Source of the DNA: a virus
DNA: 64,000 bases
Reading direction: 5' to 3' (one strand)
Virus record (IMG/VR): IMGVR_UViG_3300020548_000009
Location: 1 to 64,000 of that record
Shown here piece after piece: positions 1,377-20,482 of the stretch. The notes beneath the pieces were generated by a model that was not told the DNA's origin, searched no databases, and saw only the letters and a program-made list of their open reading frames with translations. Positions within the stretch are counted from its first letter, which is position 1; every line of letters starts with the position of its first letter. The position numbers and the translations under genes were made by a program.

Positions 1377-1585
1377 TAATACAAGGGTACACTATTGTTA
1401 GACACTTTGCAACTTCTGCGACCATTTGTCACACAATTGTCATACTTCACTGAGAGTGGTCGGTAGTCACGGAGAGTGGTCGCCGTCCTTGGGGTAGGAA
1501 ACTTTGCGATTGTGCGCACTTTCACAAGCCCGTGTCCGCGCCCGTGCCCGGGGCGAACACCTGTTCGCTTCTTGCCTCCGGCCTG

Positions 1586-1646
1586 CCCAAAATATGGTGT
1601 TCCTTGATTATTGGATTTATTTTCGTGCGGAGCGTTCCTTCGGGGC
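1586..1646 (+). repeat. Dispersed ~62 bp repeat, copy 1 of 9
   Basis: CCAAAATATGGTGTTCCTTGATTATTGGATTTATT...CGTTCCTTCGGGGC. Confidence 0.9.
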
Positions 1647-1690
1647 AGTTGGGCTCCCGCTCGCGGCGGGTAGCCCCTCTGCCTTTTGGT

Positions 1691-1834
1691 TTAGTCCCAC
1701 TCGCCCAGAGTTCGGAGGATGTCCTCAGTCCACCTTCTGAAGTCGGGATTTAGGTCAAGGTCTAGCGACCAATCGTAAATCTCTACTCGCTCGTGGTCCT
1801 CTCGGGTGATTTTGTTTTGTTCTCTCGGTGTCAT
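1691..1834 (-). CDS. 47-aa hypothetical early protein
   Basis: MTPREQNKITRED...GEWD; SD AAGGAG; promoter at 1855-1883. Confidence 0.65.
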   Translation of the reverse strand: MTPREQNKITREDHERVEIYDWSLDLDLNPDFRRWTEDILRTLGEWD

Positions 1835-1898
1835 TGTTTTCTCCTTCTGTTTTTAGTATAACATGGCTCGGGCTGTTTGTCAACCCGAGCCATGTTTT

Positions 1899-2138
1899 TT
1901 ATTTTTCCGTGATTCCTGCCAGACGGCAACCCTTGCGGATTTTGCCCATTCCTTGCTTGTCGCTCATTGAGCCCCAACCGTTGCTTACTTGCGTAAGTGT
2001 TCCGTTGGCGATTTCTGCCATGAGCGTTGAATAGTGCCAGATTTGGCGGACGCCTTCAACCTCAACGGCTCTCCATGAAGAAGCCTTGACGGTCTTGCCG
2101 TTTCGCAATGGCACTGTTGCTAGTTCCTGTATTTTCAT
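1899..2138 (-). CDS. Hypothetical early protein
   Basis: ORF with SD AAGGAG and promoter at 2178-2206. Confidence 0.75.
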   Translation of the reverse strand: MKIQELATVPLRNGKTVKASSWRAVEVEGVRQIWHYSTLMAEIANGTLTQVSNGWGSMSDKQGMGKIRKGCRLAGITEK

Positions 2139-2276
2139 TGTGTTGTTCTCCTTGTTTTGGTTTTGCCTTACACCTTCAGTATAGGGTACTGTTAGACATT
2201 TGTCAACCTTATCCGACAGAAACTTATTTTTCTTTTTGAGGTTGCTTTTTGTCTGCCGTTGTGTTATACTATTATT

Positions 2277-2404
2277 AGTGGGGGGAGGAGACGACTCGCG
2301 CCCCTCTCCGGTAAGACGCAGCCCGTGCGCCCCTCTTCGCCCTAGGTCGCCCGTGGTGGCCTCTGGCCGCCCCTTCGGGGGAGGGCTCTCACCCTCCCCC
2401 TTTC
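2277..2404 (+). ncRNA. Candidate plus-strand sRNA A
   Basis: Promoter TTGCTT-N17-TATACT (2242-2270); GC-rich, no RBS/ATG; ends at hairpin GGGGGAGGG/CCCTCCCCC followed by TTT. Confidence 0.45.
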
Positions 2405-2408
2405 GGGA

Positions 2409-2651
2409 CTACTTCGCCTCTTGCGTGTTGAGCAAGGTTCCGTATGCGTACACGATGTCGTAGGCGAGGTTGCTACAACGTCGCTGTACGACCCTCAGTG
2501 CGCCCTGAATGAGGATGCTCTTCTCTTCGTCGTGGGGTGTGTCGGCTGCCTCTGCTTCGGCTGCCTCTACTTGGTCAATTAGTCGACGCAGAATAAACTT
2601 GACTTCCTGCGCCCTCTTCTGTGCTATTTCACTCTCGGTCATTGTGTCCAT
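2409..2651 (-). CDS. Hypothetical early protein
   Basis: Start refined to MDTMTESE after SD AAAGGAG. Confidence 0.7.
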   Translation of the reverse strand: MDTMTESEIAQKRAQEVKFILRRLIDQVEAAEAEAADTPHDEEKSILIQGALRVVQRRCSNLAYDIVYAYGTLLNTQEAK

Positions 2652-2783
2652 TGCTTTTCTCCTTTGTGTTGGGTGAGGCGGTTGCCCCACTACTTCTAGT
2701 GTATCACAACTACTTCTCTTCGTCAACCTGAAACGCAAATTATTTTCATTCTTTGCCCCTGCGCACTTTTTGCCCTGGGTGGG

Positions 2784-2918
2784 TCAGTCCCACTCTCGGC
2801 GGTCGGGTGCCGGCTTGCGCTTGTGGTGGATAGTTACCGCACGGGTGCGCAGTCCGTCTGCGAACGCCTGCTTATCCGCGGGGTTCCAGCCCCTCCGCTT
2901 GCTCTTTTGGTTTTTCAT
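2784..2918 (-). CDS. 44-aa basic small protein
   Basis: MKNQKSKRRGWNPADKQAFADGLRTRAVTIHHKRKPAPDRREWD; SD GGAGGTG; promoter at 2937-2965. Confidence 0.65.
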   Translation of the reverse strand: MKNQKSKRRGWNPADKQAFADGLRTRAVTIHHKRKPAPDRREWD

Positions 2919-3042
2919 CTTCACCTCCATAAGACCAGTGTATCACACTTTTAGTGGTTTCGCAACTCGTTCCGCAAGATTTTGCCCCTGCGCGAACTTC
3001 GGGCTGAGAGGGCACTTCTCGTCCCCCTCAGCCCTTGCGCTC

Positions 3043-3240
3043 TTAGGCGTTGGCGTTTTCTTTCTTTGCCTTCACGGTTGGGTTTCCCAACTTGCGAGCG
3101 ACATCTACGATGTCACCAGTCAGGTTCAGGAACACCGTTCCGTTCTCTCCGTCTCGGAGTTCAATGCTCAACATTCCGTTGGTCATTTCTGCCGTGACAT
3201 CGTCCGCGGTGAGGTGGACGAATAGGTGTGTGCTTATCAT
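3043..3240 (-). CDS. Hypothetical early protein
   Basis: Start MISTHLF after AAGGAAGG. Confidence 0.7.
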   Translation of the reverse strand: MISTHLFVHLTADDVTAEMTNGMLSIELRDGENGTVFLNLTGDIVDVARKLGNPTVKAKKENANA

Positions 3241-3416
3241 TTCTGTTTCCTTCCTTGTTGTGTAAGGCGGTTGCCCTACTACTATTAGTGTATCACACTT
3301 GCGAGAGTTTCGCAACTCTTTGCGCCACCTTTTTTAGATTCTGCCCCAGCGGCCTTCGCTGGGCGAGTTTGGGGTGGCAAGGCAAGGAGGTAGAACCCTG
3401 CCACCCTCACTCGTTC

Positions 3417-3704
3417 TTATCGGGCTACGGCGAGCGAAGCCTTGTTCAGGGCATCGCTACTCTCTCGCCATGCGTCGCTATCGGCTGTCTCTCCGTAGAA
3501 CGCTTGACGATAGATACGCTTGCCTTTGTGGTACAACTCAACCATAACGGCGTTTGCCTTTATGCTGTCGTCGTATGTCACTTCGGCTTCGTAGGTGACT
3601 TTGGTAATCTCGTCGTAAGCCCACCCCGTAGGGAATAACTCACTGGATACCTCAATCCACTCGCCCGTTCGTTTTGCGCCTCTCGGCAGTCTGTAATAAC
3701 TCAC
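3417..3704 (-). CDS. Hypothetical early protein
   Basis: ORF with GAGG SD and promoter at 3753-3781. Confidence 0.7.
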   Translation of the reverse strand: MSYYRLPRGAKRTGEWIEVSSELFPTGWAYDEITKVTYEAEVTYDDSIKANAVMVELYHKGKRIYRQAFYGETADSDAWRESSDALNKASLAVAR

Positions 3705-3859
3705 TTCATTACCTCTCTCTCTTGTAGGTACTTCGGTTTCCCTACTAACTACACTATACCAGATTGTTAGACACTTGACAACCTTATCGGGCAGATTCCC
3801 GAAGAATCTTTTTGCCGGCTCAGGTTGACTTTTCGCTCATTGTGTGATACAATGATAAT

Positions 3860-3951
3860 AGACGGGGGAGAGGAGAGCCCGCCGCGGCCTCCGCCCGAAC
3901 GTATGTTCGCCCGCGCGCCCCTCTTCGCCCGGGGGTCGTTCTCTTCCCTCA
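3860..3951 (+). ncRNA. Candidate plus-strand sRNA B
   Basis: Promoter TTGACT-N17-TACAAT (3825-3853); closing stem GGGGGAGAGGA/TTCTCTTCCCTC; shares GCGCCCCTCTTCGCCC with sRNA A. Confidence 0.45.
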
Positions 3952-4010
3952 ATCTACTTTTATTTTACAGTGGGGGTGTAACACGGTTTCCCGCGCTACA
4001 CCCCCATTTT

Positions 4011-4322
4011 TTATTTTGCGAAACTCGCTACTGCTACCGCTATGTCCCAAGCATCAAACTCATCTGCTGTACCGTAGTTTTCAGTAGCGTTTTTACCGAA
4101 GTACGGCAGATTATCTTCTAGGTGTTCACGCAACGCTTCAAGCGTTGAGGGACTATCGATAATCTCTTTCAGAACCTCACCTACTTGGCGGAGTCTGTTT
4201 CCGTTGTTGGTGTTCCGAAACTGATAAGCCTCGAACCAATAGGTTCGGCTTTCTTCTGCTTGTTTTAGTGCTTTGCGTAACTCATCAACATACTCTTGGG
4301 TAATCGGCTGTTCGGTAATCAT
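4011..4322 (-). CDS. Hypothetical early protein
   Basis: Start MITEQP after AAGGAG. Confidence 0.7.
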   Translation of the reverse strand: MITEQPITQEYVDELRKALKQAEESRTYWFEAYQFRNTNNGNRLRQVGEVLKEIIDSPSTLEALREHLEDNLPYFGKNATENYGTADEFDAWDIAVAVASFAK

Positions 4323-4523
4323 TGTTTTTTCTCCTTGTTGTTTTGGTTTTGCCTTACACTCTAAGTATAGCATCTGTTAGACACTTTGTCTACTCAGAAT
4401 AGACATTGTGAAATGTTTCTTTTGCCCGCCGCGGCCTCCGCCCGCGGGCAATTTTCTCCCACACCCTATTTTAGCGTGGGGGTGTTACACAGTTATTTTT
4501 TACTGTGTAACACCCCTTTGCTA

Positions 4524-4802
4524 CTAGGCGTTTGCCGTTGCGAGTTTGTCGTAACGGTGTACGGGCTTTATGTCTTCATTCACTGCTCGCCCGATGCTCT
4601 TAGCATTGAGTAGGTCAGTGAGAGTGCCAAGCATGACATCGTAGTAGACATACTCGCTACCGTTTGTGTACTCAATTACCAATTCACCGTAGGCGAGTTC
4701 GTAATTGTCCGACTCGCCATGTTGGGCGAGGTCAATCTCGCTCACCGTATAAGTGAGTTTCCTCACTGCCGTTGAGTTGAGTTGGGTTACTTCTATTTTC
4801 AT
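4524..4802 (-). CDS. KTSC domain protein
   Basis: S-x-A-V-x-x-L-x-Y...L-V-I-E-Y-x-N-G-S-x-Y-x-Y-Y-D-V...L-L-N-A-x-S-I-G pattern. Confidence 0.75.
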   Translation of the reverse strand: MKIEVTQLNSTAVRKLTYTVSEIDLAQHGESDNYELAYGELVIEYTNGSEYVYYDVMLGTLTDLLNAKSIGRAVNEDIKPVHRYDKLATANA

Positions 4803-4890
4803 TTTGTTTCTCCTTTGTTGTTTTGTTATTGCCTTACACTTCTACTATACCGTTGGTGGGGCAGATTTCCAACCTGCCCCACCAGATTTT

Positions 4891-5073
4891 TTAGCGTCCG
4901 AATTCTTCCTGCCAGAGTTCTTCTGCTTTGTCTAGGATTCTGTCGGCGTAGCGAGTGCTCATGTAGTCGTCGTCAATCCACGGAATGAATCCGTTTCCTG
5001 CGAGGTGCTCTATGGCTCTCTCTACGAATCGCTCTTGCTCTTCTTCGCCTAGTTCACTGAATTCGGTAATCAT
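4891..5073 (-). CDS. Acidic hypothetical early protein
   Basis: ORF with AAAGGAG. Confidence 0.7.
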   Translation of the reverse strand: MITEFSELGEEEQERFVERAIEHLAGNGFIPWIDDDYMSTRYADRILDKAEELWQEEFGR

Positions 5074-5246
5074 TGGTTTCTCCTTTGTGTTGTTTTGCCT
5101 TACACTCTAATTGTACAGCATGGGTGTACCATAATTGCGCATTTACGCCATTTGTCACACAATTGTCATAATCGGCTGTTAGGCTCACCTAACAAGTGAT
5201 AGTGCGAATTTTCACAAGCCTCCGACCGAAGGTCGGCTCCCGGTAG

Positions 5247-5308
5247 CCCAAAATATGGTGTTTCCTGATAATCGGATTTATTTAGTGCTGTGGCGTTTCC
5301 CTTGGGGC
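5247..5308 (+). repeat. Dispersed repeat copy 2
   Basis: CCAAAATATGGTGTTTCCTGATAATCGGATTTATT...GCGTTTCCCTTGGGGC. Confidence 0.9.
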
Positions 5309-5362
5309 TGAGCGAAGGGGGTGAGCGCCCGGCCTGGTCGCCCACCCCACATCATTTTGCTC

Positions 5363-5515
5363 TTAGAGCCACTCAGAGACGTCGCCGTCGGCGATTTCTG
5401 AGTAGTCCAATCCATGAGCGTCGGCTACTGCTTGCCAGAAGTCTTCTTCTGTAAGCGGTGCTTGACCCTCTTGAACGTCTTCTGGGAGATGCTCCCACCA
5501 CGTTGTTTTATTCAT
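5363..5515 (-). CDS. 50-aa acidic protein containing TEEDFWQAV
   Basis: Translated by hand; SD GGAAAGGA. Confidence 0.7.
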   Translation of the reverse strand: MNKTTWWEHLPEDVQEGQAPLTEEDFWQAVADAHGLDYSEIADGDVSEWL

Positions 5516-5539
5516 TGTGTTTCCTTTCCTGTTGGGTAA

Positions 5540-5740
5540 TTACAGTGTATCACACTCTAGGAGTTTTAGCAACTCTTTCTGGGTCATTTCCTGAATCTGT
5601 GCCGCGTCTAGGTCTGCGGGTTTGATGACCTCAATGATTTGGCCCCTGCCTTGCGCGACTTCGCGGGCTGAGTAGAGGCTGAGGTACGGGCCGAGGTAGA
5701 TATCTCCCGCGGCTGTGTTGAGTTTGATGATGTAGTTCAT
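5540..5740 (-). CDS. Hypothetical early protein
   Basis: Start MNYII after AAGGAG. Confidence 0.6.
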   Translation of the reverse strand: MNYIIKLNTAAGDIYLGPYLSLYSAREVAQGRGQIIEVIKPADLDAAQIQEMTQKELLKLLECDTL

Positions 5741-5803
5741 GTTTCTCCTTGGCCTCCGGGCGGCGGCTGGTGGGGCACTTCTCGTCCCCACCAGCCTGAC
5801 CCG

Positions 5804-6268
5804 TTAGGCGTTGATTAGTTCTTTCTGAGCCTTGACCCACTGCTCGTAGTTCCAGGCTTCGGTTGTCACGATTGCCTTGATTACCTTGAGGGGAATCTCG
5901 GCTTGGTTATTGCCGTACTTCACGGCGTTGTTTGCCCACTCAGTGATGCTGTAGGTGCTGTGGTTGGTGCTGAGTCCGACCATCTCATCTACCATCGCTG
6001 GCGTGATGTAGAGGTTGTGGCGTTCGCCATCTTCTCTCCACTCGTACATCATCGGGCTTTGGCTCATCGCCTCAACAGCCTTAGACCGACCGTAGTAGTC
6101 AGCCGCGTTGGCTTCGGTGATGCGCCCGTATCCGACTACGCCACCCCAGAAGATGAACGTCTGAATGTCGCCGCGTACGTTGTCATGACCGTACTCGTCT
6201 TTGACCCAGACTCCCTCGGGGTTCTTGGCGTAAGCCTTTGTATTTCCGATATCCCATGTCAATGGCAT
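5804..6268 (-). CDS. Hypothetical early protein
   Basis: Start MPLTWD after AAAGG. Confidence 0.75.
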   Translation of the reverse strand: MPLTWDIGNTKAYAKNPEGVWVKDEYGHDNVRGDIQTFIFWGGVVGYGRITEANAADYYGRSKAVEAMSQSPMMYEWREDGERHNLYITPAMVDEMVGLSTNHSTYSITEWANNAVKYGNNQAEIPLKVIKAIVTTEAWNYEQWVKAQKELINA

Positions 6269-6384
6269 TGTGTTTACCTTTCCTTTGTTTGTGTGGGGCG
6301 GTTGCCCCACTACTAATATTGTATCACCTATTCTGCTGTCTCACAACCTCGGCGGCAAGGTTTTGCCTCCGGGCGGTGCTCGCC

Positions 6385-6621
6385 CTACCTTTCGGTAGGG
6401 ACGAGACCAGCGGGCTTCAGTGAGTTATTCAGCACGAGGCCGTAGAAGTGGCCTGTGACTGCATCCTTCACGAACGAGTGTCCCATTGTGCCGTTTGGCG
6501 GTGCGCCAAGGCCACCTGAGCACTTCACCACGAGGGTTCCACGCTTTGGCTGGTGTGGGCGGGCATCAAAGATGTCCATCCCGACGGGTTCGTATCGGTA
6601 TTGCCTGATTTTCTTGGTCAT
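6385..6621 (-). CDS. Hypothetical early protein
   Basis: Start MTKK after GGAGG. Confidence 0.7.
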   Translation of the reverse strand: MTKKIRQYRYEPVGMDIFDARPHQPKRGTLVVKCSGGLGAPPNGTMGHSFVKDAVTGHFYGLVLNNSLKPAGLVPTER

Positions 6622-6769
6622 TGTGTTTTCCTCCATGATGTTAGTATAACAGATGTTTTGCGGTATTGCAACCTTCTTTTATTCCTTTATTGCCCCTGCC
6701 GGCTTTGCCGGAGGGAGGTCTTGGGCTGGTGGGGGAAGGAGGTAAGGAACCCCACCAGCCGCACTCGAC

Positions 6770-7036
6770 CTATGCTTTCAGTGTATCACACTTTTCACGC
6801 TCTCGCAACTCTGCCAGCGTGATTTCACCCTTTATCAAGGATGCCCACTCTGATAGGTCTGCGACATTGAGACGCTCCGGCTCGGTGCCGCAAGGGTACT
6901 TGGCGGCTTGGTGCCAAGCCTTTGCGTCACATTCTCCGCAAACGGGCGTGCCGTCAAACGACCACCACGAATGCGTGAGGTAGTTAGCCTCAGCCTCTTC
7001 TTTAGTTCCCTGAAACGGGACTGGAACATTTGCCAT
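6770..7036 (-). CDS. Small Zn-binding-like protein (CxxC...H...C)
   Basis: Start MANVP; CGECD...WHQAAKYPCG. Confidence 0.65.
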   Translation of the reverse strand: MANVPVPFQGTKEEAEANYLTHSWWSFDGTPVCGECDAKAWHQAAKYPCGTEPERLNVADLSEWASLIKGEITLAELREREKCDTLKA

Positions 7037-7112
7037 TTTCTTACCTTTCTTGTGTTGGTGGTGCTTCTGCCCCACATCTACAGAATACCAGATGTGGGGC
7101 AGAATGACAACC

Positions 7113-7490
7113 TTATTTTAGGATTTTTTCTAGTGTCTGTTGGTAGGTCTGCCATTGTGACGGGATACCGTTTTTTCCCATTGCCACAGCCTTGTCAAAG
7201 TCTGTTTCGCCAGAGCCCAGGATTTTTCGGACTGCCAGAATGCGGTCACGGACTGCTTCACGGTCTGCGCTATCACCGTCAAACGGGAATAGCGGGGACG
7301 GGTCAGTCAGATGAGCCATTGCCGCATCACAGATTTCGTCGTATGTGGCAAACGGATACAGCGAGGTTTCTTCACTGCTGAATAGATAGAACTCACAGCA
7401 GTATTCGCTGAACTGTTCGTATCGGTCTATTCTCTCTAATCTCTCTATTGCGCTTCCAGCATACGGGCTGGTACCTTGTGTGGTGGTCAT
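7113..7490 (-). CDS. Hypothetical early protein (leaderless)
   Basis: ATG 6 nt after CATAAT. Confidence 0.7.
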   Translation of the reverse strand: MTTTQGTSPYAGSAIERLERIDRYEQFSEYCCEFYLFSSEETSLYPFATYDEICDAAMAHLTDPSPLFPFDGDSADREAVRDRILAVRKILGSGETDFDKAVAMGKNGIPSQWQTYQQTLEKILK

Positions 7491-7615
7491 ACATACATTA
7501 TGCCGTACTGTTAGACAGATTACAACCTTATTCGTATTACAGAAGTATTACATTTGGCTTGTGCTTGTTCGCACTTTCACAAGCCCGGGGCCGGTGAAAT
7601 TGATTTTTGCCCCTG

Positions 7616-7678
7616 CCCCAAAATATGGTGTTCCTTGATTATTGGATTTATTCTGCTTTGCGCCGTTCCCCTTGGGGC
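7616..7678 (+). repeat. Dispersed repeat copy 3
   Basis: CCAAAATATGGTGTTCCTTGATTATTGGATTTATT...GCCGTTCCCCTTGGGGC. Confidence 0.9.
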
Positions 7679-7720
7679 TGGGCTGGTGGGGGATTGCCCC
7701 ACCAGCCTCGCTGACCATTC

Positions 7721-8131
7721 TTAGAGGTACTTGGCTACTGCGCCGTAGGAAGAAGTACGGACATACTCTTCGTCGGACAGTTCTAGCACTCGGATTGCGT
7801 TCGCAAGTTCCTCTTGCGCTTCTTTATTGATGCGCTCGCTGAAATTGCTTTCCAAAGTGGGAAGTGAAATCTTGTGACTGAAAGTCACGGTGACTTCATT
7901 TACTTCTTCTTGGTTGTAGCGGTAAGGGTAAGCAAACGATACCTCTTTCGGCGTGAGTTTGCCAGACTTCACAAGCGCGGCGACAGACTTCTTGATGTCT
8001 GCGATTGCCTGCTTCTGAGCCTTCTCAGCCTTAGCGTGGTTGTTCGCTTCCTCAACCTTGCGGTTAAGTGCCTCGTTGAGCGCTTTGAGCAACTTGCCCT
8101 TGGCTACCCGTACATTGATTGTCTTACTCAT
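7721..8131 (-). CDS. Hypothetical early protein
   Basis: 136-aa ORF with SD and promoter. Confidence 0.75.
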   Translation of the reverse strand: MSKTINVRVAKGKLLKALNEALNRKVEEANNHAKAEKAQKQAIADIKKSVAALVKSGKLTPKEVSFAYPYRYNQEEVNEVTVTFSHKISLPTLESNFSERINKEAQEELANAIRVLELSDEEYVRTSSYGAVAKYL

Positions 8132-8193
8132 TGTGTTTATTGCCTTTCCTGTTTTGTTGGTAGTGGGGAGGTTTCCCCACTACTATTATTGTA

Positions 8194-8592
8194 TCACAGG
8201 TTGCGCTCTTTGGCAACCCGTGACGCGATTTTCTTTCGCTGGTTGTTGGTACGCCAGCATGACGCTTGGTAGGCGATTTCGCTTACCTCGTCGCAGTAGA
8301 TGCCGACAAACTCGGTCTCGATGACTGCCTGATTGCGCTTTGCGCCGCTGGTGACACGGCGAACGCAACGCACACGGTAGGTGTCGTTGAAGTCCAGCGT
8401 GATTTCCACCATGCGAGCACGCCCGACAGGGAGCCATACGCCGATTGTGTTTTGTTCAGCGTCACGGAGAGAACCCCAACGACCACCGGAGATGGCGAAT
8501 AGGTTCATCATGCCGACTTGACGGATGATTTCCGCTGGGTCGCATTCACGACCTTCACGGTTGAGTATTGGGAGTGTGTATGTGTTTGTCAT
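8194..8592 (-). CDS. Hypothetical early protein (leaderless, start MTNTY)
   Basis: ATG 6 nt after TATAAT. Confidence 0.7.
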   Translation of the reverse strand: MTNTYTLPILNREGRECDPAEIIRQVGMMNLFAISGGRWGSLRDAEQNTIGVWLPVGRARMVEITLDFNDTYRVRCVRRVTSGAKRNQAVIETEFVGIYCDEVSEIAYQASCWRTNNQRKKIASRVAKERNL

Positions 8593-8776
8593 ACTCTCAT
8601 TATACGACCTGTTAGACAAATTAGCAACTCTTTTAGTGAACTTTCTGAGTGGCCGGCTGACCACGGAGAGTGACCTCGGCCCCTGTGGCTTATTTGCATG
8701 GCTTGCAAATAAGCAACTGTTGTGATTTGCCCCTGGGATGGGCGGGCAGGAAAGGATTGCCTGCCCACCCTCCGCG

Positions 8777-8995
8777 TCAGGAGTTTGCCTCCATTTCGCA
8801 GAATCGTTCCCATAGGTCTTCTTCGGTGTTGTAGCGGTCGCCCAAGTCATCGACGCCAATCGGTCTGCCCGTGGCACCGCACCATTCGTAGAAGCGGTCT
8901 ACCTTTTTCTTCCAGTTAGCGTAAGTGCTAACAAGTTGAGGGTCGCCCATCCAGACAAATCCCCGGTACGGACGGCTCACTATTTTGCTATTCAT
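8777..8995 (-). CDS. Hypothetical early protein
   Basis: ORF with AAAGGA; ends TEEDLWERF. Confidence 0.7.
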   Translation of the reverse strand: MNSKIVSRPYRGFVWMGDPQLVSTYANWKKKVDRFYEWCGATGRPIGVDDLGDRYNTEEDLWERFCEMEANS

Positions 8996-9125
8996 TGTGT
9001 TTTCCTTTCTTGTGTTGTTACTTCTATTGTATCACACTTATTGTCAGTTTGCAACTCCGGTTGGAGATTCTGCCCCTGCGCTCGGGCGAGCCGTGGGCTG
9101 GTGGTTTCCCACCAGCCCGACAGAC

Positions 9126-9572
9126 TCAGCCGAAGATTGCTCCTACTGCGTCAGCGAGTGCGCCTTGCGCCTTGCCTTCGTCAATAGTCAGTTCGTCGTT
9201 GCCTGCCATTGAGAGTGCGCTGGCGATAGAACCGTCACGGCTCACCACGACCAGCAACTCCACACGCCGACGCTCAGGGTGCTGAGACGGGGGGGTGTTG
9301 TCACCGTCTGCGACGGGCGAAGCCCAGCCAGCAGTAATAACGCCGTAGTAGTTTGCTGACTTGTCTGGGGTGACATTGTCCAGCAGGTCGTAGACATCTC
9401 CACCACACTGCTCCATGTCCTTTATCCAGATTGGGTGTCCGTCATGGAACGCCACGGGTGCTACCCGAGCCTTTGACGGGGTATTGGTTGGGTTGGTGTT
9501 GAGACAGTCCACGCCGAGCAGTGCGACGATTTCCGCCACGCTCAGGTCTGTCGTATTCGTGAGTGTATTCAT
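9126..9572 (-). CDS. Hypothetical early protein
   Basis: Start MNTL after GGAAAGG. Confidence 0.7.
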   Translation of the reverse strand: MNTLTNTTDLSVAEIVALLGVDCLNTNPTNTPSKARVAPVAFHDGHPIWIKDMEQCGGDVYDLLDNVTPDKSANYYGVITAGWASPVADGDNTPPSQHPERRRVELLVVVSRDGSIASALSMAGNDELTIDEGKAQGALADAVGAIFG

Positions 9573-9666
9573 TGTGTTGCCTTTCCTTGTTTTGTTGTGG
9601 GCGGGATTGCCCACTACTTAGATTGTACCACCGTGTTAGACATTTGTCAACTCGGCCAGCGAGAAT

Positions 9667-9892: not shown

Positions 9893-9945
9893 TAATACTG
9901 TATCACATTCTAGTCGCTCTCGCAACCTTATTCTGAATTATTTTT

Positions 9946-11692: not shown

Positions 11693-11732
11693 TGTCAAGT
11701 ATGACAGTTATTTTATTTATGTCAAGCAGCCG

Positions 11733-12257: not shown

Positions 12258-12703
12258 GTAAGGACATTGAGTGTGACTCCGTCAAACAGCCAGCGCCACT
12301 CAGCACCGTCTTCGCCGCGCCAGTCAACAACACTGTCTTTCTCAACGTATTTTGCGATTGCTGAGAAGAAGTGGTCTTCTGAACCCGTCTTGTTGTCGTA
12401 GTAAATAGCGAACAGGTCACCATCGTCGTTGTACTCGGCTTCAAATCCAAGAGCGTCAATGATTTCCTGAAAGGTCTTGTATTTATTTGGGTAATCCGCT
12501 GGCATCCACGCGAACCACTTGGCAGGATGATGGTCCATGCCTTCTGGTCGTGGGCTGCGAGCATCAACTCCGTCGCCGCCGTACGAGCCGCCAGACTTCA
12601 AGTCGTCGCGGTCGTTGAGAGCGCACATTGCCTCGTAACACTTGACAAAGTGCTCTTTCTTGATTGTTATGTCATTGTTGGTTGTTTGAACAAAGTATCC
12701 CAT
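12233..12703 (-). CDS. Hypothetical phage protein
   Basis: 156-aa ORF with promoter and leader hairpin. Confidence 0.75.
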   Translation of the reverse strand: MGYFVQTTNNDITIKKEHFVKCYEAMCALNDRDDLKSGGSYGGDGVDARSPRPEGMDHHPAKWFAWMPADYPNKYKTFQEIIDALGFEAEYNDDGDLFAIYYDNKTGSEDHFFSAIAKYVEKDSVVDWRGEDGAEWRWLFDGVTLNVLTCVKKVWS

Positions 12704-12927
12704 TGTTTTCTCTTTCTATTGAGTTGGTGAGGCGGTTGCCTCATTACTTACATTGTATCACGTTGTTGGTTGGTTTGCAACTTCTGCTTCAAGGTGTAGG
12801 CGAATATCCAGCAGCAGGTCTGTCATCTCCGAGGAGGAGACAAGGTCTCTGCCGGAGATTTCCGACAGAGCCTCATCCACGAGTTTTCTTGCTGCTTCGT
12901 ATTTGTCGCCAGTCATAGGCTCAGACA

Positions 12928-13146
12928 TTAGTGCTTCCCGATGTCTAGAAAACCTGTTTCGTTGCCTTCTGGGTCAGACATTACGAGAGCGTCGGTCCCA
13001 TCAGTGAACTCCAAAATGCATGTTGGTGTTTTTGAATAAAGCCAACCTGTTTCTTTGTTCTCTTCGTCCGTCAGTTCACGAACGTTCTTGATGGTCTTGC
13101 CGACAAGCGACTCAGCGTAATGAGTTTTGTTTATTACTGTGCTCAT
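12928..13146 (-). CDS. Hypothetical protein
   Basis: ORF coupled to the XRE gene. Confidence 0.7.
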   Translation of the reverse strand: MSTVINKTHYAESLVGKTIKNVRELTDEENKETGWLYSKTPTCILEFTDGTDALVMSDPEGNETGFLDIGKH

Positions 13147-13409
13147 ACCTTGATGCCTGTCACGAGTTCTTCTGGACGCGTATCAAGCGCGTAGCAGATA
13201 CGGAAAAACGTATCCAGCGACGGAGAGAAGTGTCCATTCTCGATTCTGTTGATGGTCTTGCGGTCAATGCCTGCGCTCTTAGCCAAATCGCCCTGAGAGA
13301 GACCGATGGTCTCGCGCAGGCTCTTTACTCGGCTTGCAACTTCAAGCAGTGCCTTTTTGTTCATTGCGTTGTTCATTGTTTGTCTTTCTTTCTGTGGGTG
13401 TTGTGCCAC
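13143..13409 (-). CDS. XRE-family HTH transcriptional regulator
   Basis: LRETIGLSQGDLAKSAGIDRKTINRIENGHFSPSLDT. Confidence 0.9.
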   Translation of the reverse strand: MAQHPQKERQTMNNAMNKKALLEVASRVKSLRETIGLSQGDLAKSAGIDRKTINRIENGHFSPSLDTFFRICYALDTRPEELVTGIKV

Positions 13410-13510
13410 ACTTACATTGTACCATGACCGAGTCAGGCTTGCAACCTTCCCGAAAAAATATGTTCGCGGATATTGTTGCCGTCTGACCCGGCCAAGGATT
13501 TTGCCTCTGG

Positions 13511-13570
13511 CCCGGAAATATGGTGTTCCAGAGAAATCGGATTTATTTTCGTAGCGCCGTTCCCTTGGGC
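13511..13570 (+). repeat. Dispersed repeat copy 6
   Basis: AAATATGGTGTTCCAGAGAAATCGGATTTATT...GCCGTTCCCTTGGGC. Confidence 0.9.
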
Positions 13571-13598
13571 TGGTTGTACAGCCGCAAGGGACAGGTGC

Positions 13599-13769
13599 CT
13601 AGCCGCGCTTCTTGAGGTAAGCCTCAATAGCGGACTTGATGACTGCGGACTTGCTGACCTTGTCCTCTTTGGAAACGGTCGCGATTTTGCGAGCCATGTC
13701 CTCGGAAAGACGGAAGGCGATAAGTGGGTACTTAGCCTTTGGGGTAGTTGCTGTCTTGGTCTTGCTCAT
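13599..13769 (-). CDS. Ribbon-helix-helix (CopG/Arc-like) DNA-binding protein
   Basis: IAFRLSEDMARKI...VSKSAVIKSAIEAYL. Confidence 0.8.
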   Translation of the reverse strand: MSKTKTATTPKAKYPLIAFRLSEDMARKIATVSKEDKVSKSAVIKSAIEAYLKKRG

Positions 13770-13972
13770 TGCTTTCTTCTTTCTATGTGTGTTGGTATTA
13801 CATCTCAATTATACATTGTGTCTAACGCATCTACAACCTCTGTGCGCGAGTTCACTCGCGCTTTGGGGTTAAGTGACGGTTATATGACGGTTAAGGGACG
13901 GTTAGATAGAAATGGTACAGGCTCAAACCCTTACTGGGTAAGGGTTTCCGGGCTTTTGTACCATATTTGCGG

Positions 13973-14103
13973 GTGACAATCTGTCACCTTGGGGGTGACA
14001 ACCTGTCACCCCGGGGGTGACAACCTGTCACCCCCTAGTGACAATCTGTCACTACTTGTGGCGGCCGTCACATACTACATGTAGTGGGGTGACAACCTGT
14101 CAC
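13973..14103. repeat. Five palindromic iteron-like units GTGACA-AYC-TGTCAC (candidate origin)
   Basis: Starts at 13973, 13995, 14017, 14038, 14089 (22/22/21/51 bp spacing). Confidence 0.85.
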
Positions 14104-14119
14104 CCCCTACATCTAGAGA
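14072..14119. promoter_or_regulatory. Tandem NrdR-box-like sites 32 bp apart
   Basis: ATACTACATGTAGTGG and CCCCTACATCTAGAGA versus consensus acaCwAtATaTwGtgt. Confidence 0.6.
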
Positions 14120-14121
14120 GG

Positions 14122-14802
14122 CTAGACGCCAAGAAGTTCGGCTACTGCCTCGCTTCTCTTCTCTCTGTAGACATCCGAATACTCGGTTCGCCAGTCGCTC
14201 TGCTGGTCCAAGGCTTCGTCTATGTCATCTTTGTCAAAGAGTTTCGCAAGTTTCTTTGGCATCTGTGGCTCTTCGCCCTCTTCGTATGTCATCTCGCCGT
14301 TACGGAATACGGAACAGCCGACAAAGGCGTCTCCTTCTTCCGTGTAAACAAGTGAGAACACGAGCGTTGGGAACTGCTTGGAAATCTGTCTGATGAGACC
14401 TTCGGCAGGCGACCACGCACTCTCAAAGTATGCGCCGATGTATTTGGCATCATCGTTTACTTTGTCGTTCTTGGTGACAAACGAGGTCCAGTCAAATTGG
14501 CAAGCACCCCACTTGGTTCCCCAATTGGCGTTACACCACGAGTACCAGTCTCTGTGACCGTACTTCTTGATGTTCTCTTGCTGTTTGTCTTCCAGTTGCT
14601 TCTGCTCTTGCTCGTCACTGAACCAGCCAGATGTCGTGTTGGTGAGTTCTTCTGGGCAAGGGAAGAGGTGGTTGAGACCGGTAGTTTCTTTGGTCTCGCC
14701 AGTCTCTTCGTCTTTGTGGGTTGTCTTGGTGGCGTCAACGAGCCTTCGCAGTTCGCTGACCTCACCGTGTACTTCTAATTCGTTATAGCACCAGTTTGGC
14801 AT
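14122..14802 (-). CDS. DUF1281/YubB ferredoxin-like domain protein
   Basis: MPNWCYN, DWYSWCNANWGTKW, FESAWSP motifs. Confidence 0.8.
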   Translation of the reverse strand: MPNWCYNELEVHGEVSELRRLVDATKTTHKDEETGETKETTGLNHLFPCPEELTNTTSGWFSDEQEQKQLEDKQQENIKKYGHRDWYSWCNANWGTKWGACQFDWTSFVTKNDKVNDDAKYIGAYFESAWSPAEGLIRQISKQFPTLVFSLVYTEEGDAFVGCSVFRNGEMTYEEGEEPQMPKKLAKLFDKDDIDEALDQQSDWRTEYSDVYREKRSEAVAELLGV

Positions 14803-14859
14803 TTCTTATTCCCTTTCATTGAGTTGGTTATTGCTTACACTTACATTGTAGCACAATAA

Positions 14860-15958
14860 TCAGCCATCTCCAACCTCTCCACGACAGTATTCCCGAGGAG
14901 AAGGCATTTCTTCGACAGTTCCGTTCATTTGTGCGTTTGTATATTGCTCTGAGTAGGCACCGCGGTCTGCGTCGGACATCACATTGTCCCACGCATTCCA
15001 GTCGGCGTCATCCCAGTTTTGTGTCTCGATGCGTACCGGCGGGGCAAGAAACCACGTCCCACTTTCAGCATCACAGTAGACAATGCTCATTGTTTGTTCC
15101 TTTCGTTTATTTTGATGTCAATCGCTATTACTGCCGCCACTAAAGCAAACAACATGGCCACCACGATGATGTCAATCATTCGTGACCCCACGATGCTTCG
15201 CCGTGTTTTGTTTTGTTGTAGCACTCAGTGTGGTAGTTGCCGTAGTTGTAGATGTTTCCTTTTACGGACTCAACACGAACTTCGGTGTCTAGGTAAATCT
15301 GTTTTCCACACTCGTCGCACTCAAAGCCTGAGCACTCAGCGCAACCCCAGCCGTCATCGACTGGAATACGGTTCACGAACAGGCCGTTGCCGCTACCAAA
15401 CGCCGTTGAGCGTTGGCAGTAGACACATGGGTCAATAGTCGTTATCACAGCATCCCCAATTCCTTGAGGTCGTTGTTTACTTGCTCTTGAACCCAGACGC
15501 GGTTGGCTTCAGACGCCGCGTAATAGGCGACTGCCTGCTTGGTTTGGGTCTGCTTGAGTTGCTCGCCGTAGCCAGCCTTCTCAAGCAGTCCCCAAACTTC
15601 GTCTAAGCACTCGCCGTCATTCGCCTCGTCTCCGTGGCGCGTAAGGGCTGTGATGATGTCGTTGATAAGGGTTGGGTAATCGGTTGTGTTGGTCATACTT
15701 AGAGTGTATCACACCATTTGCCGTTTGACAACCTTATTCGGCATCAAGTGGCTGAATATTCCACTTGGTACACCAGTGGTCGTAGCAACCATCGCACAGA
15801 TAAGTGTTGTCCTGGTAAATACGCTTAGTGTTGTTCTCGCCGGAGCCAACCGGTGCCAAGTTCCAGTCGTCAATCATGACAACATCGCACTCGGAACAGA
15901 TTCGCTGTTTTGTTTTTGTCATCTCAATCACCACGAACTCTGGTAGGTAAACTCCCAC
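14860..15958 (-). CDS. Run of small hypothetical genes (14860-15090, 15176-15448, 15445-15696, 15734-15958), two with CxxC Zn-ribbon motifs
   Basis: Coupled ORFs following promoters. Confidence 0.6.
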
Positions 15959-16398
15959 TCATCAGGCATCTTGAGGATGTCTGTAAGCATGGAGATACTT
16001 CTCTTTAGTTCCTCAAAGTAATACTCGTCGTAGTCCTGAGAGCCGAAGAAACAGCCAGCAGAAGTTGGCAAGAGTTCATCCGCCTTCTTCGGGTTCTTCT
16101 TGACTTCTTTGCACAAGCCGAGAAGTTCCTGAAGTTTTTCACGGGAGACATAAGTCGTGCGACAGTCGTCCTCTCCGTTTTGGCAGTTTTCTACAAACCA
16201 TTGGTGGATTTGATTTGCCTTACGCCAGTAGCCGACTGAGATTTCCAGATAGGCAGATGGCATAAAGGTATGTTTCATGTAACTGTCAGGAATATTGGCA
16301 AACTCCTTGAGTTCGTCAAACGCCTTCTTGCTTTCTTCACCACGCCAGTTCGCACTTGAGTAGAACTTCTTGGCATTGAGGTACATATCCAGTCCCAT
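15928..16398 (-). CDS. Conserved phage hypothetical protein (MGLDMYL...YWRKANQIH...FFG...YQSSW family)
   Basis: Motif pattern recalled from many phage proteins. Confidence 0.75.
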   Translation of the reverse strand: MGLDMYLNAKKFYSSANWRGEESKKAFDELKEFANIPDSYMKHTFMPSAYLEISVGYWRKANQIHQWFVENCQNGEDDCRTTYVSREKLQELLGLCKEVKKNPKKADELLPTSAGCFFGSQDYDEYYFEELKRSISMLTDILKMPDEWEFTYQSSW

Positions 16399-17872
16399 TA
16401 GAGAACTCCTGCTTCAATCCACTTGGCAAGGTCTGTTGCTGGCATCGGCGTCAGTTTTTCAACTTCGTTGATTTCAACAACATCCCAAGCCTTGTCCCAA
16501 TCAAGAACTTCAACCCAAAGGATTTTGTTTCTGTCAAAGGGCTCGTTGCTGTATTTCTCCATAGCCTCATCCGCATCGTTGGCTTCAACGATGTATTGGA
16601 GGTTTATGTCAATTGACTGCTGAATAATAAATTGTTTCATTGTGTTTGCCTTTCTATTTGGTTGGTACTTACATTGTAGCACAATCTAGGTCGTTTTCCA
16701 ACCTAGATGTCGTTGCCGTCCTCATCTTGGAAGATGAGTTCGTGGCGGGACGGGGCTGAGCGCATATCTTCGTATGCCAACCTAGCCACCATCTCCATCA
16801 CATCGTCGTCGGATACTTCCAACTCGGGGTCGTTGTTGTTTTCCCGAATTGACTCTTTGACTGACTCCACATCGTAGGTGAAGGTACGGATGACGTTAAT
16901 TGTCTCCATCACGCATACTCCTCTTCCTCTTCCTCGCGGCGCGCCTCATCTTCGGCGCACTGAGGAATGAGACTGGTGAAGCCTTCGTTGGGGTCAGCCT
17001 CGTTGGTTTCCACTGCTGAGATGAACTTGAGTGGGCATGAATCTTCGTACCACTTCTCAAGCGTTGCCAGCATTACATCTGGATACGCGGTCTGAGTGTG
17101 TTCGTAGTTTTCTCGGAACCACTGAGCCTGAGTCTCGTCAAGAGCAAGATAAATCTTGTGGCAACCGTCAAACGCGATACATTTCGCGTATTCCAGTTGT
17201 TCCTTGACTTCGTGCCAATAATCTTCCATTACAGCCATTGTGTTTTCTTCTTTCTGTTGAGTTGGTTATTACTTACAATTACAGTATAGGGGTCTGTATC
17301 ACAGTTTGCAACCTTATTGGTCAAATATTCCCTCATCGTGCCAACGATAGGACTCGTTTTGCTGAATTACTTCTTCTGAAGGTACGCCAATTATCTGAAG
17401 TGTGTGTTGGTCAATGATACGGAAACACCGTTCACATAGGTAGTGGGTTCCGTCCCACCCTTGCTCGTCGGGCTCGCACCTCGCGCCAATTTCGCTACAA
17501 GGGCTGAATCCGTCAAAGTGTGGCTCGTTCTTACACTTACAAATCCACCAGTCTTCACTGTCTTCAATGATGTAGTCAGGAATACTTTCTGGTGGGGCAA
17601 GGAGCATGTCCGTCCAGTCTGGTTTATTTTCCATTCTTAGCCGCCCAGTACGCCTGTACCTCGGTTTGTTCATCGTCTGTGCCGTCCGATAGGACAATCT
17701 CAAACTGGTGAAGCCCGTTGATGACGCGGAAGGTCTCGGCGTTCGCCACACTGTCCCAAGTGAGAGCATTACGAAGCGAATTGGTAGTTCCGCCTCGGTC
17801 TCCCAAGAGTTTTGCGCAGAAGCGTCGGTAGCCTTTGTCGTTGGTTTTCTGTAATAGGTATTGTGTTGTCAT
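16398..17872 (-). CDS. Run of small acidic hypothetical genes (16398-16640, 16703-16912, 16909-17238, 17314-17634, 17624-17872)
   Basis: Coupled ORFs following promoters. Confidence 0.6.
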
Positions 17873-17984
17873 GACTCTATTGTAGCACAAACAATCCGGT
17901 TTCGCAACCTTGTTCACAATTTCACAAATACTTTCAGGTATTTTATTTGAGACACTTTTCAGTTTTTGTCTTATTTGCCCCTAG

Positions 17985-18046
17985 CCAAAAATATGGTGTT
18001 CCATGGAAAATGGTTTTATTTTTAGGGACAGGCCGTTCCCTTGGGC
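17985..18046 (+). repeat. Dispersed repeat copy 7
   Basis: CCAAAAATATGGTGTTCCATGGAAAATGGTTTTATT...GCCGTTCCCTTGGGC. Confidence 0.9.
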
Positions 18047-18048
18047 CC

Positions 18049-18285
18049 CTACGGGCGGTCTGCGTCCTTCACCGATGCAAGCACGCCCATGTCGTTGAAT
18101 TTATTCCGAAGTTCTCGGACGGCATCTACCGACATGCAGACGTGCCCGGTGACAGTCCAACCCATGCCGCGCTTTGCTTCATGCAGCATGAGTTCTCCTG
18201 TTTCATCTAACTCGCGAAGAACTGCAATTACTTTCAGTCCCTCACTCCGAGTGTTGACAGCAGCGCTGACAGTGATTGGCTTCAT
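18049..18285 (-). CDS. Ribosomal protein bL12 (L7/L12) C-terminal-domain-like protein
   Basis: KVIAVLREL..G.L.L.EAK...MS.D...EL..KF.DMGV.ASVK parallels the bL12 CTD. Confidence 0.5.
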   Translation of the reverse strand: MKPITVSAAVNTRSEGLKVIAVLRELDETGELMLHEAKRGMGWTVTGHVCMSVDAVRELRNKFNDMGVLASVKDADRP

Positions 18286-18561
18286 GTCCGGCAATCTAGC
18301 CCACCCATCTTCCAAAGACGGTGTAGCCGTCTTCTTCGCGCCGCACAATCCATTCCGTGCCCGGATATCGCTTCTTATACTGCTGGGCTTTTGAGTGACC
18401 CGTGCGTGCGATGTTTCCGGTGCAGTACACCGCCCACGCGCCTGGAGTCTCTTTGAGTTTGTCTACGAACTGCTTCACCTGATACGGGCTGCCGTTGCGC
18501 GGTCCCGGCGGCTGCCGGAACTCCGTTTTCCTTGTCATGTTATGTATCTTTCTTTGTTTTA

Positions 18562-19023
18562 TTAAAAGGGAAGTCTGAACCACATGTCCTTGCCGCGCGC
18601 ACAGTCATGCACGCTGCTTAGCCCAATCCGCTTGTACATCGCCCGCGTATTCGCGTTTGAGTCAATGGCGTGGTATTTACCTGTGTCGTTACCAAACTTT
18701 TTAAATACTCGATTGACCATCTGATACTCCTTGATTGCCGGAGCATCTTGTCCATCGATGTCTGTGTCGTTGAAGAGGGCGAGGTCTGGCTGCCATCCGG
18801 TACGGTCATAGATGCGCTTCAACGTGGGAATGGCCCACTTGATGTTGCGTGCCGTAATCAGGATGGTGAACTCCGGTTCAAGGAGTTCTGTCATCCACTT
18901 GCGATAGTCCTCGTGATTGCTCACGAAGTCATCAAAGGCGTGGTTACGCATCTCGCTGAAGTTGGACGACAAAGCCACGTTCAAGTCCATCAGTACGATG
19001 CGCTCGGTTGACTTCTTAGCCAT
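18562..19023 (-). CDS. HAD-superfamily-like protein (degenerate motif I, DLN)
   Basis: IVLMDLN, ILITAR, AIKE, AIDSN. Confidence 0.55.
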   Translation of the reverse strand: MAKKSTERIVLMDLNVALSSNFSEMRNHAFDDFVSNHEDYRKWMTELLEPEFTILITARNIKWAIPTLKRIYDRTGWQPDLALFNDTDIDGQDAPAIKEYQMVNRVFKKFGNDTGKYHAIDSNANTRAMYKRIGLSSVHDCARGKDMWFRLPF

Positions 19024-19516
19024 TCTTCTCTCGTTCTCTATCCGCTTTCGGGTCTCTGACTTCCCACGAACCACGCTGTATTTTGCGGAAGTAAGGGGAT
19101 GTTTTGAGATAGTTTAGAACCGTCGGATAGGAAAATCCCGAAAGGCCGACAATCTCTTCAGTGGTTACTTCCTTGTAAAGATTGTTCTTGCACCACTCTT
19201 CAAGGGCTTTCCACTTGTCTGCGCGTCGCTCCGGCTTCTTTTCCTGAACGGCCTCTTTTAGCCGTTCTTTTCCAAGATATTCCGAAACCAGATACTCAAT
19301 GACTGGTGTGGAGATTGAGTAGTCGCGCATAAAGCGAACCACGTTGCCTGCGGACGGCGTCTGCTGCCAGACCTGCATGACATACAGCCCGCGGATGAGT
19401 TCGCCCATACGGGCCGACTCGTCGCGCGGAACTTTGTATATCGTGCCGTGCTTGGCTGCAGCGTCGCGCCACAGTTCTGCGTTTTTCTTATCAACTATTT
19501 CGTCTGTAATTTTCAC
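19016..19516 (-). CDS. Hypothetical protein with C-terminal winged-HTH-like region
   Basis: VTTEEIVGLSGFSYPTVLNYLK...RGSWEV. Confidence 0.6.
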   Translation of the reverse strand: MKITDEIVDKKNAELWRDAAAKHGTIYKVPRDESARMGELIRGLYVMQVWQQTPSAGNVVRFMRDYSISTPVIEYLVSEYLGKERLKEAVQEKKPERRADKWKALEEWCKNNLYKEVTTEEIVGLSGFSYPTVLNYLKTSPYFRKIQRGSWEVRDPKADREREKNG

Positions 19517-20427
19517 CAGCCGTCTCCTGCTGCATCGTAGATTCCGTTAAAAAATGCCATATTCCAAAACGCGCTATTGCCACGTGAGAGCCCTGCGCAC
19601 ATCTCGCAAATCCATGCGCCGCCTTCTTGCTCTATGAGCATTGGGCGAGGCATGCAGCACGCATCACACTCAGCATCCGGCTCATGCGCCACGGTCACGG
19701 TGTACGTGACGATGGGCGTGGTCGGTGCACTCTTGTGACGACTGGGCCTTTTCTTACGACGGGCCATAAGCGCTTGAATCCTCTCAGTAGTTGAAATGGG
19801 GTTGGGAATTGATGGAATTTGAGGAATTTAAATACTCCTCCAGTGAATTGCATACTCGGGAAAAAGATAGCCCACAGCATGGACACGGCAACCAACGTTG
19901 GCGACGCATCCGTCACTGGCAGTATCCCAAAGGACAGCACCAAGATGACGAACCACTGGAACCACTTGTTCTTGATTAATTGCATTCGGTTACTCCTCTG
20001 GGATTAGGTTGGTATTGAGTGTAAGCCAGTGGCGAAGGTATGACGACATGTCTGCATACATTGCGCCTTCCAGCATCGGGTCAAAGTCGCCGCCGAATGA
20101 TTCGGGGAAATGCTTGACGATGGTCGTCCAGAAAGACTCAAGGCCCTTGTCAACGGCCTCTTCTACACGTGCTTCTAGTTGGATATTCATTTGGTTCACC
20201 TCCTTCATTGGGTTGGTTATCATGCTCTATCACAGTATATCATGCTCTAGCACAATCAACAACCCGGAACAACCAGATTCTTGATTGCGTAGTCACCCTA
20301 TCCATGATAGAGCGTGATAGAGCATACGACAACCTCGTTCCGGAAATATTTTTGACTCTCGGTAGTTTTATTTTGAGTGACGCTCGTGAAAGTGCGCACA
20401 AGCACAATCACGTATTTCTGCCTCTGT

Positions 20428-20482
20428 CCCAAAAAAATGGTGTTCCAGCCAGGATGGCTTTATTCTGCTCGCGCCGTTTCTT
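20428..20482 (+). repeat. Dispersed repeat copy 8 (runs into a -10 TAGACT and leaderless ATG at 20494)
   Basis: AAAAAATGGTGTTCCAGCCAGGATGGCTTTATT...GCCGTTTCTTAGACT. Confidence 0.8.

Follow-up and report, generated by a model that had tools for sequence, protein, structure and literature searches.

LexA- and DnaA-type boxes in the intergenic islands of the early region of an uncultured freshwater actinophage

The stretch of DNA analysed here (the window) comprises the first 64 kb of an 84,684-bp virus record, IMGVR_UViG_3300020548_000009 of IMG/VR, and the elements in question are operator-like motifs in the non-coding islands between the early genes of its first 20 kb. A first-pass annotation of the window, made from the letters alone, had described these islands as a decoy array carrying sites for many different host global regulators, with six motif classes (LexA, DnaA, Rex, NrdR, IdeR/DtxR and 11-bp repeats of the OmpR/PhoB type). 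Every motif is present at the position given for it, and the proposal of host regulators stands for LexA and DnaA, the only two of the six classes with exact matches to host-factor sites; tests of consensus and symmetry failed for Rex, NrdR and IdeR. The LexA and DnaA motifs are strongly enriched, are confined to the early region and are kept in relatives while their flanks diverge, as the comparison with relatives suggested in the annotation showed when run for these two classes. The islands could well be control cassettes of a modular kind that lie between the early genes in a family of uncultured freshwater actinophages, and this is put forward, tentatively, as the preferred reading.

The LexA-type palindrome CGAAC-N4-GTTCG occurs four times in perfect form between 1 and 22 kb (positions 1554, 3896, 10192 and 10207), as the annotation had noticed, against an expectation of 0.01–0.08, and it is absent from the remaining 62.7 kb of the record (22–84.7 kb), with no one-mismatch forms. 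Five relatives (G001–G005) carry 6, 2, 5, 4 and 7 perfect boxes, confined to their early regions, against 1, 0, 0, 0 and 0 copies of a reversed control word. The relatives belong to a family set retrieved from IMG/VR by the core of a 62-bp element described below, with 25 true family loci and several copies per contig. Across 163 kb of family early DNA there are 28 perfect boxes (0.15 expected), present in eight of eight stretches, together with 10 one-mismatch forms, and the word is the commonest palindrome of the form 5-N4-5 in these regions. The spacer follows the pattern RNNY, starting with A or G in 100% of the boxes and ending in T or C, like the Gram-positive consensus CGAACRNRYGTTYC. 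The flanks of the box are G/C, unlike the T/A of the actinobacterial consensus TCGAAC..GTTCGA. Between homologous sites the arms are constant and the spacers differ, and the degenerate copies have lost their pairing with no compensating change; this combination argues for sequence-specific recognition by a protein and against an RNA stem.

Single LexA-type sites can also be followed through the family. At the junction around position 1554 the box is present in relatives with other spacers, and strain variants in lake DNA runs differ in sequence to the left of position 1571 and still contain CGAACATGTGTTCG. Five genomes have an identical box abutting the hairpin that follows the DUF932 gene, in an island with an identity of 60%, and the tandem form with a 15-bp period is also found in G004 and G005. 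The sites are found next to 62-bp elements, within short plus-strand units and on the 3' side of the DUF932 gene. No box lies within −40 to +20 of a predicted promoter; the nearest is at least 43 nt away, and the positions range from −67 to −325 relative to minus-strand promoters and from +43 to +123 relative to plus-strand promoters. For approximately 12 of the 28 boxes there is a 62-bp element no more than about 110 nt away.

The two perfect DnaA boxes at 11462 and 11474 (0.15 expected) form the inverted pair that had been proposed, and the pair is conserved in all five relatives. Both boxes agree with the DnaA 9-mer TTATCCACA and with its relaxed form TTWTNCACA. The family early regions contain 21 perfect DnaA boxes and two copies of the reversed control word, and the box ranks 48th among the 75,615 9-mers of these regions. 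A block of approximately 60 nt around the pair is nearly invariant in five genomes that have a mean identity of 72%, and the box variants found in relatives are TTTTCCACA. In the left box only position 3 varies, from A to T; the substitution breaks the pairing with the right box yet obeys TTWTNCACA, and therefore fits recognition by DnaA and not a hairpin. More distant relatives have kept DnaA boxes and not LexA boxes, and where both are present they are often immediate neighbours.

The DnaA pair is followed by a putative promoter, P2, that reads towards the DUF932 gene. The columns of P2 contain TTGGCA-17-TATATT in G001, TTGTGG-17-TACATT in G002 and TTGGTA-17-TACCCT in G004, and no indels separate the DnaA pair from the −35 and −10 elements among the aligned genomes. 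From this alignment we infer that the DnaA boxes lie at a fixed distance of approximately −57/−69 from the predicted promoter into the DUF932 gene. The complete cassette of DnaA pair, promoters, DUF932 gene, hairpin and LexA box is conserved in G000–G004.

The Rex, NrdR and IdeR words scored no better than background. The five Rex-like 18-mers contain two to three mismatches to TTGTGAA-N4-TTCACAA, and there are no family copies with one mismatch or fewer. All five derive from a single element of the phage family. In G002 and G003 this element is a perfect 24-bp palindrome, TTGTGAAAGT-GCGA-ACTTTCACAA, whose Rex-like half-sites are separated by 10 nt and not 4; the mismatches and this spacing led to rejection of a Rex operator. 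The NrdR box pair, defined by two 16-bp palindromes 31–32 bp apart, was rejected because the match is at background level: the word at 14072 has mismatches at 4 of 16 positions to acaCwAtATaTwGtgt, the second word (14104) is poorer, and family matches with three or fewer mismatches number four against 1.6 in shuffled sequence, two of the four being the 62-bp core. The two words flank the last of five GTGACAAYCTGTCAC palindromes. The IdeR/DtxR identity was rejected due to mismatches at 5 of 19 positions to TTAGGTTAGSCTAACCTAA and a different symmetry axis, that of TGTTAGG(C)-N2-4-(G)CCTAACA.

The 11-bp repeats that had been grouped as OmpR/PhoB type are real and conserved, but they comprise two unrelated sequences and have no assigned binder. 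The TTGTCA repeats at 1426 and 5152 show an 11-bp period and a placement next to a promoter, as would be expected of OmpR/PhoB-type sites: both are 36 nt from the −10 element, at approximately −51.5/−62.5, where upstream activators or UP-like elements are located. At 13867 the repeated sequence is an unrelated one. The word GTCACA presumably resembles the sites of MtrA. The island at 13809–14121 is conserved in five genomes. Besides the five GTGACAAYCTGTCAC palindromes and three GACGGTTA iterons it contains two hairpins, one that covaries and one of the form GGTACA...TGTACC, and a phage protein may use it as a hub of operators or iterons. The Cro/CI-type helix-turn-helix (HTH) gene near this island is the only recognisable gene for a DNA-binding protein in the region.

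The 62-bp element has a rigid core, AAAAWATGGTGTTCC-N9-GGNTTTATT, and is present in nine copies in the window, all in the plus orientation whatever the gene direction, and in 55 copies in the family. No conserved RNA base pairs were found in 48 copies, so the element is taken to be a DNA-level site. A role as plus-strand promoter of short terminated RNAs was rejected, as a terminator-like hairpin is located downstream of no more than 4 of the 39 copies. The element is found in G002-like relatives between a strong plus-strand promoter (TTGGTT-17-TATAAT) and a conserved plus-strand gene, and because it is downstream of a sigma-A promoter there it is not simply a promoter. Seven of the nine copies follow the 3' end of a minus-strand gene and two flank the sole plus-strand operon. 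On one reading, a protein bound to the element would block transcription at unit boundaries. A search of 185,579 prokaryote genomes with the 62-bp pattern gave chance single matches only, none with the extended consensus. The sole plus-strand operon is located at 20494–21346, within 20430–21386, and a conserved N-terminus, MxRPRDxQRS, marks the product of its first gene, for which there is no family match.

Essentially all genes between 1 and 20 kb are encoded on the minus strand, as indicated by AT skew, Shine-Dalgarno and start contexts and the Pfam matches to DUF932 and HTH_3. There are dozens of early genes, small and mostly ORFans, each preceded by its own promoter of sigma-A-like type (TTGNNN-17-TAYAMT, in many cases with TG) followed by a leader hairpin. 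In all, 35 promoter-like sites were counted where 13 were expected; almost all are on the minus strand. Terminator-like sites show no overall enrichment. Non-coding DNA makes up approximately 28% of 0.6–20.2 kb, and its GC content of 50%, compared with 52% for coding DNA, does not agree with the description of the islands as GC-rich gaps. Five repeat families (D1–D5) are found in the early region. Promoter and stem-loop units are repeated around small variable genes and one indel is bounded by repeats, as is characteristic of the PeSL type. This indel is seen in a contig from a wastewater run in which position 3870 is followed directly by 4424, a join made between two GCCCGCCGCGGCCTCCGCCCG repeats; this natural variant is without the cassette 3871–4423, which contains the LexA box at 3896, a terminator and the gene 4011–4322.

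Eight early minus-strand promoters (162–9642) share the −35/−10 spacer word TGTCTAACA, and in another promoter class the −10 region is itself a 13-bp palindrome, AGTGTATCACACT. At 2236–2410 and 3825–4010, strong sigma-A-type promoters on the plus strand drive GC-rich non-coding units that oppose all neighbouring genes. These units contain several CCCCTCT/CCCTCC words, which are anti-Shine-Dalgarno-like, and end in a hairpin and a T-run; the start of the window falls inside a third unit of this kind. A gene-free stretch of 678 nt at 9573–10250 contains two promoter-driven units with no open reading frame (promoters in the region of 10033–10005 and 9926–9898). The word GAGAGTGGTC occurs twice, 20 nt apart, at 1452–1481, and GAGTGGTC is found again in the islands of every relative, where in most cases a LexA box stands on one side of it and a DnaA box or the TGTTAGGC palindrome on the other. 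The combination of LexA, DnaA, GAGTGGTC and TGTTAGGC modules differs among the islands of relatives; the earlier observation that each island is mixed differently is borne out for the modules, of which only two match host factors. No promoters of the PafBC (RecA-NDp) type and no parS sites were found, and CRP/GlxR spacing was at chance level.

The gene content of the record includes a tape-measure protein, a major head protein, a protease, an endolysin, a lambda-O-like initiator, ParB-like proteins and an SNF2 helicase. Near-identical DNA is present in approximately 19 metagenome runs from lakes and freshwater, and together with the WhiB domain encoded in the window these matches identify the host as a freshwater actinobacterium, with no genus assigned. 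A pattern search of 185,579 prokaryote genomes for the WhiB-domain protein gave no relatives, and the phage collection contained no near match to the window. G001 is syntenic with window positions 330–16800 at approximately 80% identity, G002 is approximately 70% identical to the window, and G003–G005 are more distant than these two. Integrase, resolvase and S24 peptidase genes were not found in the record, and no tyrosine or serine recombinase was found in the record and its five relatives, six contigs of up to 106 kb that are all fragments. Scans of the window for Rfam families and tRNAs gave no hits, and the one possible RNA run yielded a few 151-nt contigs only, with no strand or end information. 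The full genome size is estimated at approximately 130 kb.

Table 1. Coordinates of features in the window
Feature	Position	Strand	Remark
Direct repeat TTGTCA-N5-TTGTCA	1426–1442	−	Minus-strand promoter 1412–1384; as TGTAACACAAC x2 in G001
Degenerate 24-mer copy	1504–1527
LexA-type box CGAACACCTGTTCG	1554–1567		25 nt left of 62-bp element
62-bp element core	1587–1622	+	Other copies at 5248, 7618, 10092, 11540, 13513, 17986, 20430, 21351
LexA-type box CGAACGTATGTTCG	3896–3909		Approximately +43 downstream of plus-strand promoter 3825–3853; kept in G003
Identical TTGTCA-N5-TTGTCA repeat	5152–5168	−	Same spacing to −10 at 5115–5110
Palindrome TGTTAGG-ctca-CCTAACA	5177–5194		Family form TGTTAGGC-N2-GCCTAACA
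Second 24-mer copy	5194–5217
Third 24-mer copy, GCTTGTG-N14-CACAAGC	7557–7586		Outer arms co-change in relatives, GC..GC to GT..AC
Tandem LexA-type boxes, 15-bp period	10192–10220		Abut GC hairpin after stop of DUF932 gene
DUF932 gene	10251–11294	−	Pfam PF06067, E 5e-36; phrog_1221
Putative promoter P2, TTGTGC-17-TACAGT	11416–11444	−	17 nt downstream of DnaA pair, reads towards DUF932 gene
Inverted pair of perfect DnaA boxes, TTATCCACA-ggc-TGTGGATAA	11462–11482		Boxes at 11462 and 11474
Cro/CI-type HTH gene	13143–13409	−	Pfam HTH_3, E 5e-14; near iteron island
Three GACGGTTA iterons, 11-bp period	13875–13904		Conserved in G001–G004
Five GTGACAAYCTGTCAC palindromes	13973–14103		Same layout in five genomes, concerted arm changes per genome
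Rex-like 18-mer	17910–17927		2 nt upstream of −35 of minus-strand promoter 17907–17879; kept in G002
24-mer copy, opposite orientation	20384–20407		Upstream of plus-strand operon
WhiB domain	24011–24208		Middle part of 184-aa protein, 23789–24343
Lambda-O-like initiator gene	29912–30580

As modular control cassettes, the islands would be assembled from GC hairpins after the upstream gene, the co-oriented 62-bp protein-binding element, palindromes and repeats of the phage family (the 24-mer, the TGTTAGGC palindrome, GAGAGTGGTC, the TTGTCA repeats, the GACGGTTA iterons and a GTGACA-N3-TGTCAC array) and the LexA and DnaA boxes. Host LexA and DnaA would bind their own boxes and act in cis, and the most likely role of the other modules is that of operators bound by proteins of the phage itself. 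The DnaA pair would be an input to the promoter that reads into the DUF932 gene. More speculatively, the LexA boxes may serve as roadblocks or insulators at unit boundaries that are released on LexA cleavage, so that read-through from one early unit to the next would depend on the SOS state or on the time elapsed since infection. The modules are exchangeable as cassettes, as seen in the natural variant without a whole cassette between repeats. Several points weigh against this account. The record has a CheckV completeness of 64% and is a fragment, the promoters are predicted, the LexA and DnaA motifs of the host are assumed from its phylum, and roadblocking of elongation by LexA is an assumption. 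The spacing from the LexA box to the 62-bp element is also loose, at 37–45 nt or 87–109 nt, and therefore no precise mechanism follows from the geometry.

That the boxes are operators of phage-encoded proteins which share or copy the LexA and DnaA words, with the host proteins uninvolved, is an unlikely explanation, although the same islands are full of family-specific palindromes that need phage binders, most early genes are ORFans and the G/C flanks of the LexA boxes depart from the actinobacterial consensus. The boxes match two unrelated host consensuses exactly, including the RNNY spacer and the tolerance at the W position of the DnaA box, and the record encodes no S24 or LexA-like protein and only one recognisable HTH protein.

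Somewhat less likely again is the decoy proposal of the first-pass annotation, in which the hundreds of sites on the amplified phage genome would sequester LexA and DnaA in trans, so that the SOS response is derepressed and chromosome initiation disturbed. The LexA boxes are perfect, often tandem, distal to promoters and loosely placed, with two to seven per contig, as if their presence mattered more than their place, and four to seven boxes on at least 100 genome copies would exceed the few dozen SOS boxes of a host, which also counts for titration. Against it, only two of the regulator classes are real, the DnaA pair and the repeats stand in fixed promoter geometry (the geometry is neutral for LexA), and one LexA site is positionally conserved in five genomes. 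All sites are also in the early region, though titration would need late copy number and any location would serve. None of the results points specifically to titration, and no paper on titration of LexA or DnaA by phage DNA was found in the literature. The motifs had been described as mostly outside −10/−35 elements. That holds for LexA; the box at 17910, the TTGTCA repeats and the DnaA pair abut promoters. The fixed position of the DnaA pair, the TTGTCA repeats and one Rex-like box beside promoters matches the outcome, control of the adjacent promoter, that the annotation itself had named as counting against titration. Its alternative, in which the islands sense the state of the host and gate early expression, would fit the data better. 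For LexA, a role in cis as SOS-sensitive roadblock, insulator or timer is favoured over titration, and the data do not discriminate between the two.

An improbable alternative assigns the islands to DNA entry or architecture, as proposed for the T5 injection-stop, with host DNA-binding proteins that hold, pause or protect the first-entering end. The region resembles that of T5-like phages in being rich in non-coding DNA and pre-early-like, with repeats, palindromes and DnaA boxes towards one genome end (bioRxiv 10.1101/866236), and all nine copies of the 62-bp element are co-oriented regardless of gene direction. The contig, however, is a fragment that starts inside a repeat unit and does not show the physical genome ends; the T5 model is itself unproven, and the DnaA pair has promoter geometry. 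It is very improbable that the palindromes are RNA-level elements (hairpins of 3' untranslated regions or small RNAs acting as terminators or stability elements) with a coincidental likeness to operators, since, despite the many GC hairpins after stop codons, the promoter-driven non-coding units in the islands and the position of the 3896 box inside a plus-strand non-coding unit, 28 of 28 boxes share one arm sequence with no compensatory variants, the degenerate copies are unpaired, the change in the left DnaA box is uncompensated, the 62-bp element has no conserved structure, and the Rfam scan of the window gave nothing.

Most known cases of host transcription-factor sites in phage genomes are operators at promoters of temperate elements. 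What is unusual here is that the LexA boxes are perfect, promoter-distal and sometimes tandem in a family of abundant lake actinophages with no sign of lysogeny among its fragment contigs. If host LexA and DnaA bind these sites, the start-up programme of the phage would read, or disturb, the DNA-damage and replication state of the host, which would give access to the control of infection in hosts that are difficult to grow. It is doubtful, though conceivable, that a seemingly virulent family scatters perfect, promoter-independent LexA boxes, along with DnaA boxes, over the DNA that it expresses first, as a cleavable SOS roadblock or timer, or as a LexA sink that induces the host SOS response with no phage protein. 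Most look-alike matches to operator consensuses in such islands are phage-specific elements.

The closest known system for the LexA boxes is Bacillus phage GIL01, in which LexA and gp7 act on SOS boxes at promoter P1 (PMC4551915). In both cases a phage without its own LexA carries consensus host SOS boxes, and GIL01 is also without an integrase. The LexA-controlled elements of the GIL01 type differ in that their boxes overlap the promoter and control the lysogeny switch, whereas the 28 boxes of the present family are located off predicted promoters, at unit boundaries, and lysogeny genes were not found in the six fragment contigs. Further mobile elements under LexA control are CTXphi and coliphage 186, through Tum. 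For the DnaA boxes, T5-like phages contain eight in one oriC-like array in the injection-stop (iss) non-coding region (bioRxiv 10.1101/866236), in contrast to the one to four boxes per early region found here, typically as an inverted pair upstream of a promoter and combined with LexA boxes.

The T4-type PeSLs are repeated promoter and stem-loop units around small ORFan genes (PMC2839356, PMC4122927). The islands share this arrangement, and they have a natural variant without the whole cassette between repeats; neither host-regulator sites nor a co-oriented 62-bp element has been reported for PeSLs.

The stoperators of mycobacteriophage L5 are numerous sites at which a repressor halts elongation within transcribed intergenic DNA; they bind the phage repressor and are oriented with transcription. 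The datA locus of the E. coli chromosome titrates DnaA and works with IHF. Both differ from the present case in that the stoperator binder is a phage repressor and datA is host-chromosomal. At E. coli uvrB, DnaA and LexA sites occur together and DnaA functions as a transcription factor (PMC6015884). The DUF932 cassette is similar in having high-affinity DnaA boxes at a fixed distance upstream of the −35 element and both DnaA and LexA inputs at one locus; uvrB is a host gene with LexA boxes at its promoters, whereas in the DUF932 cassette the LexA boxes lie 3' of the gene.

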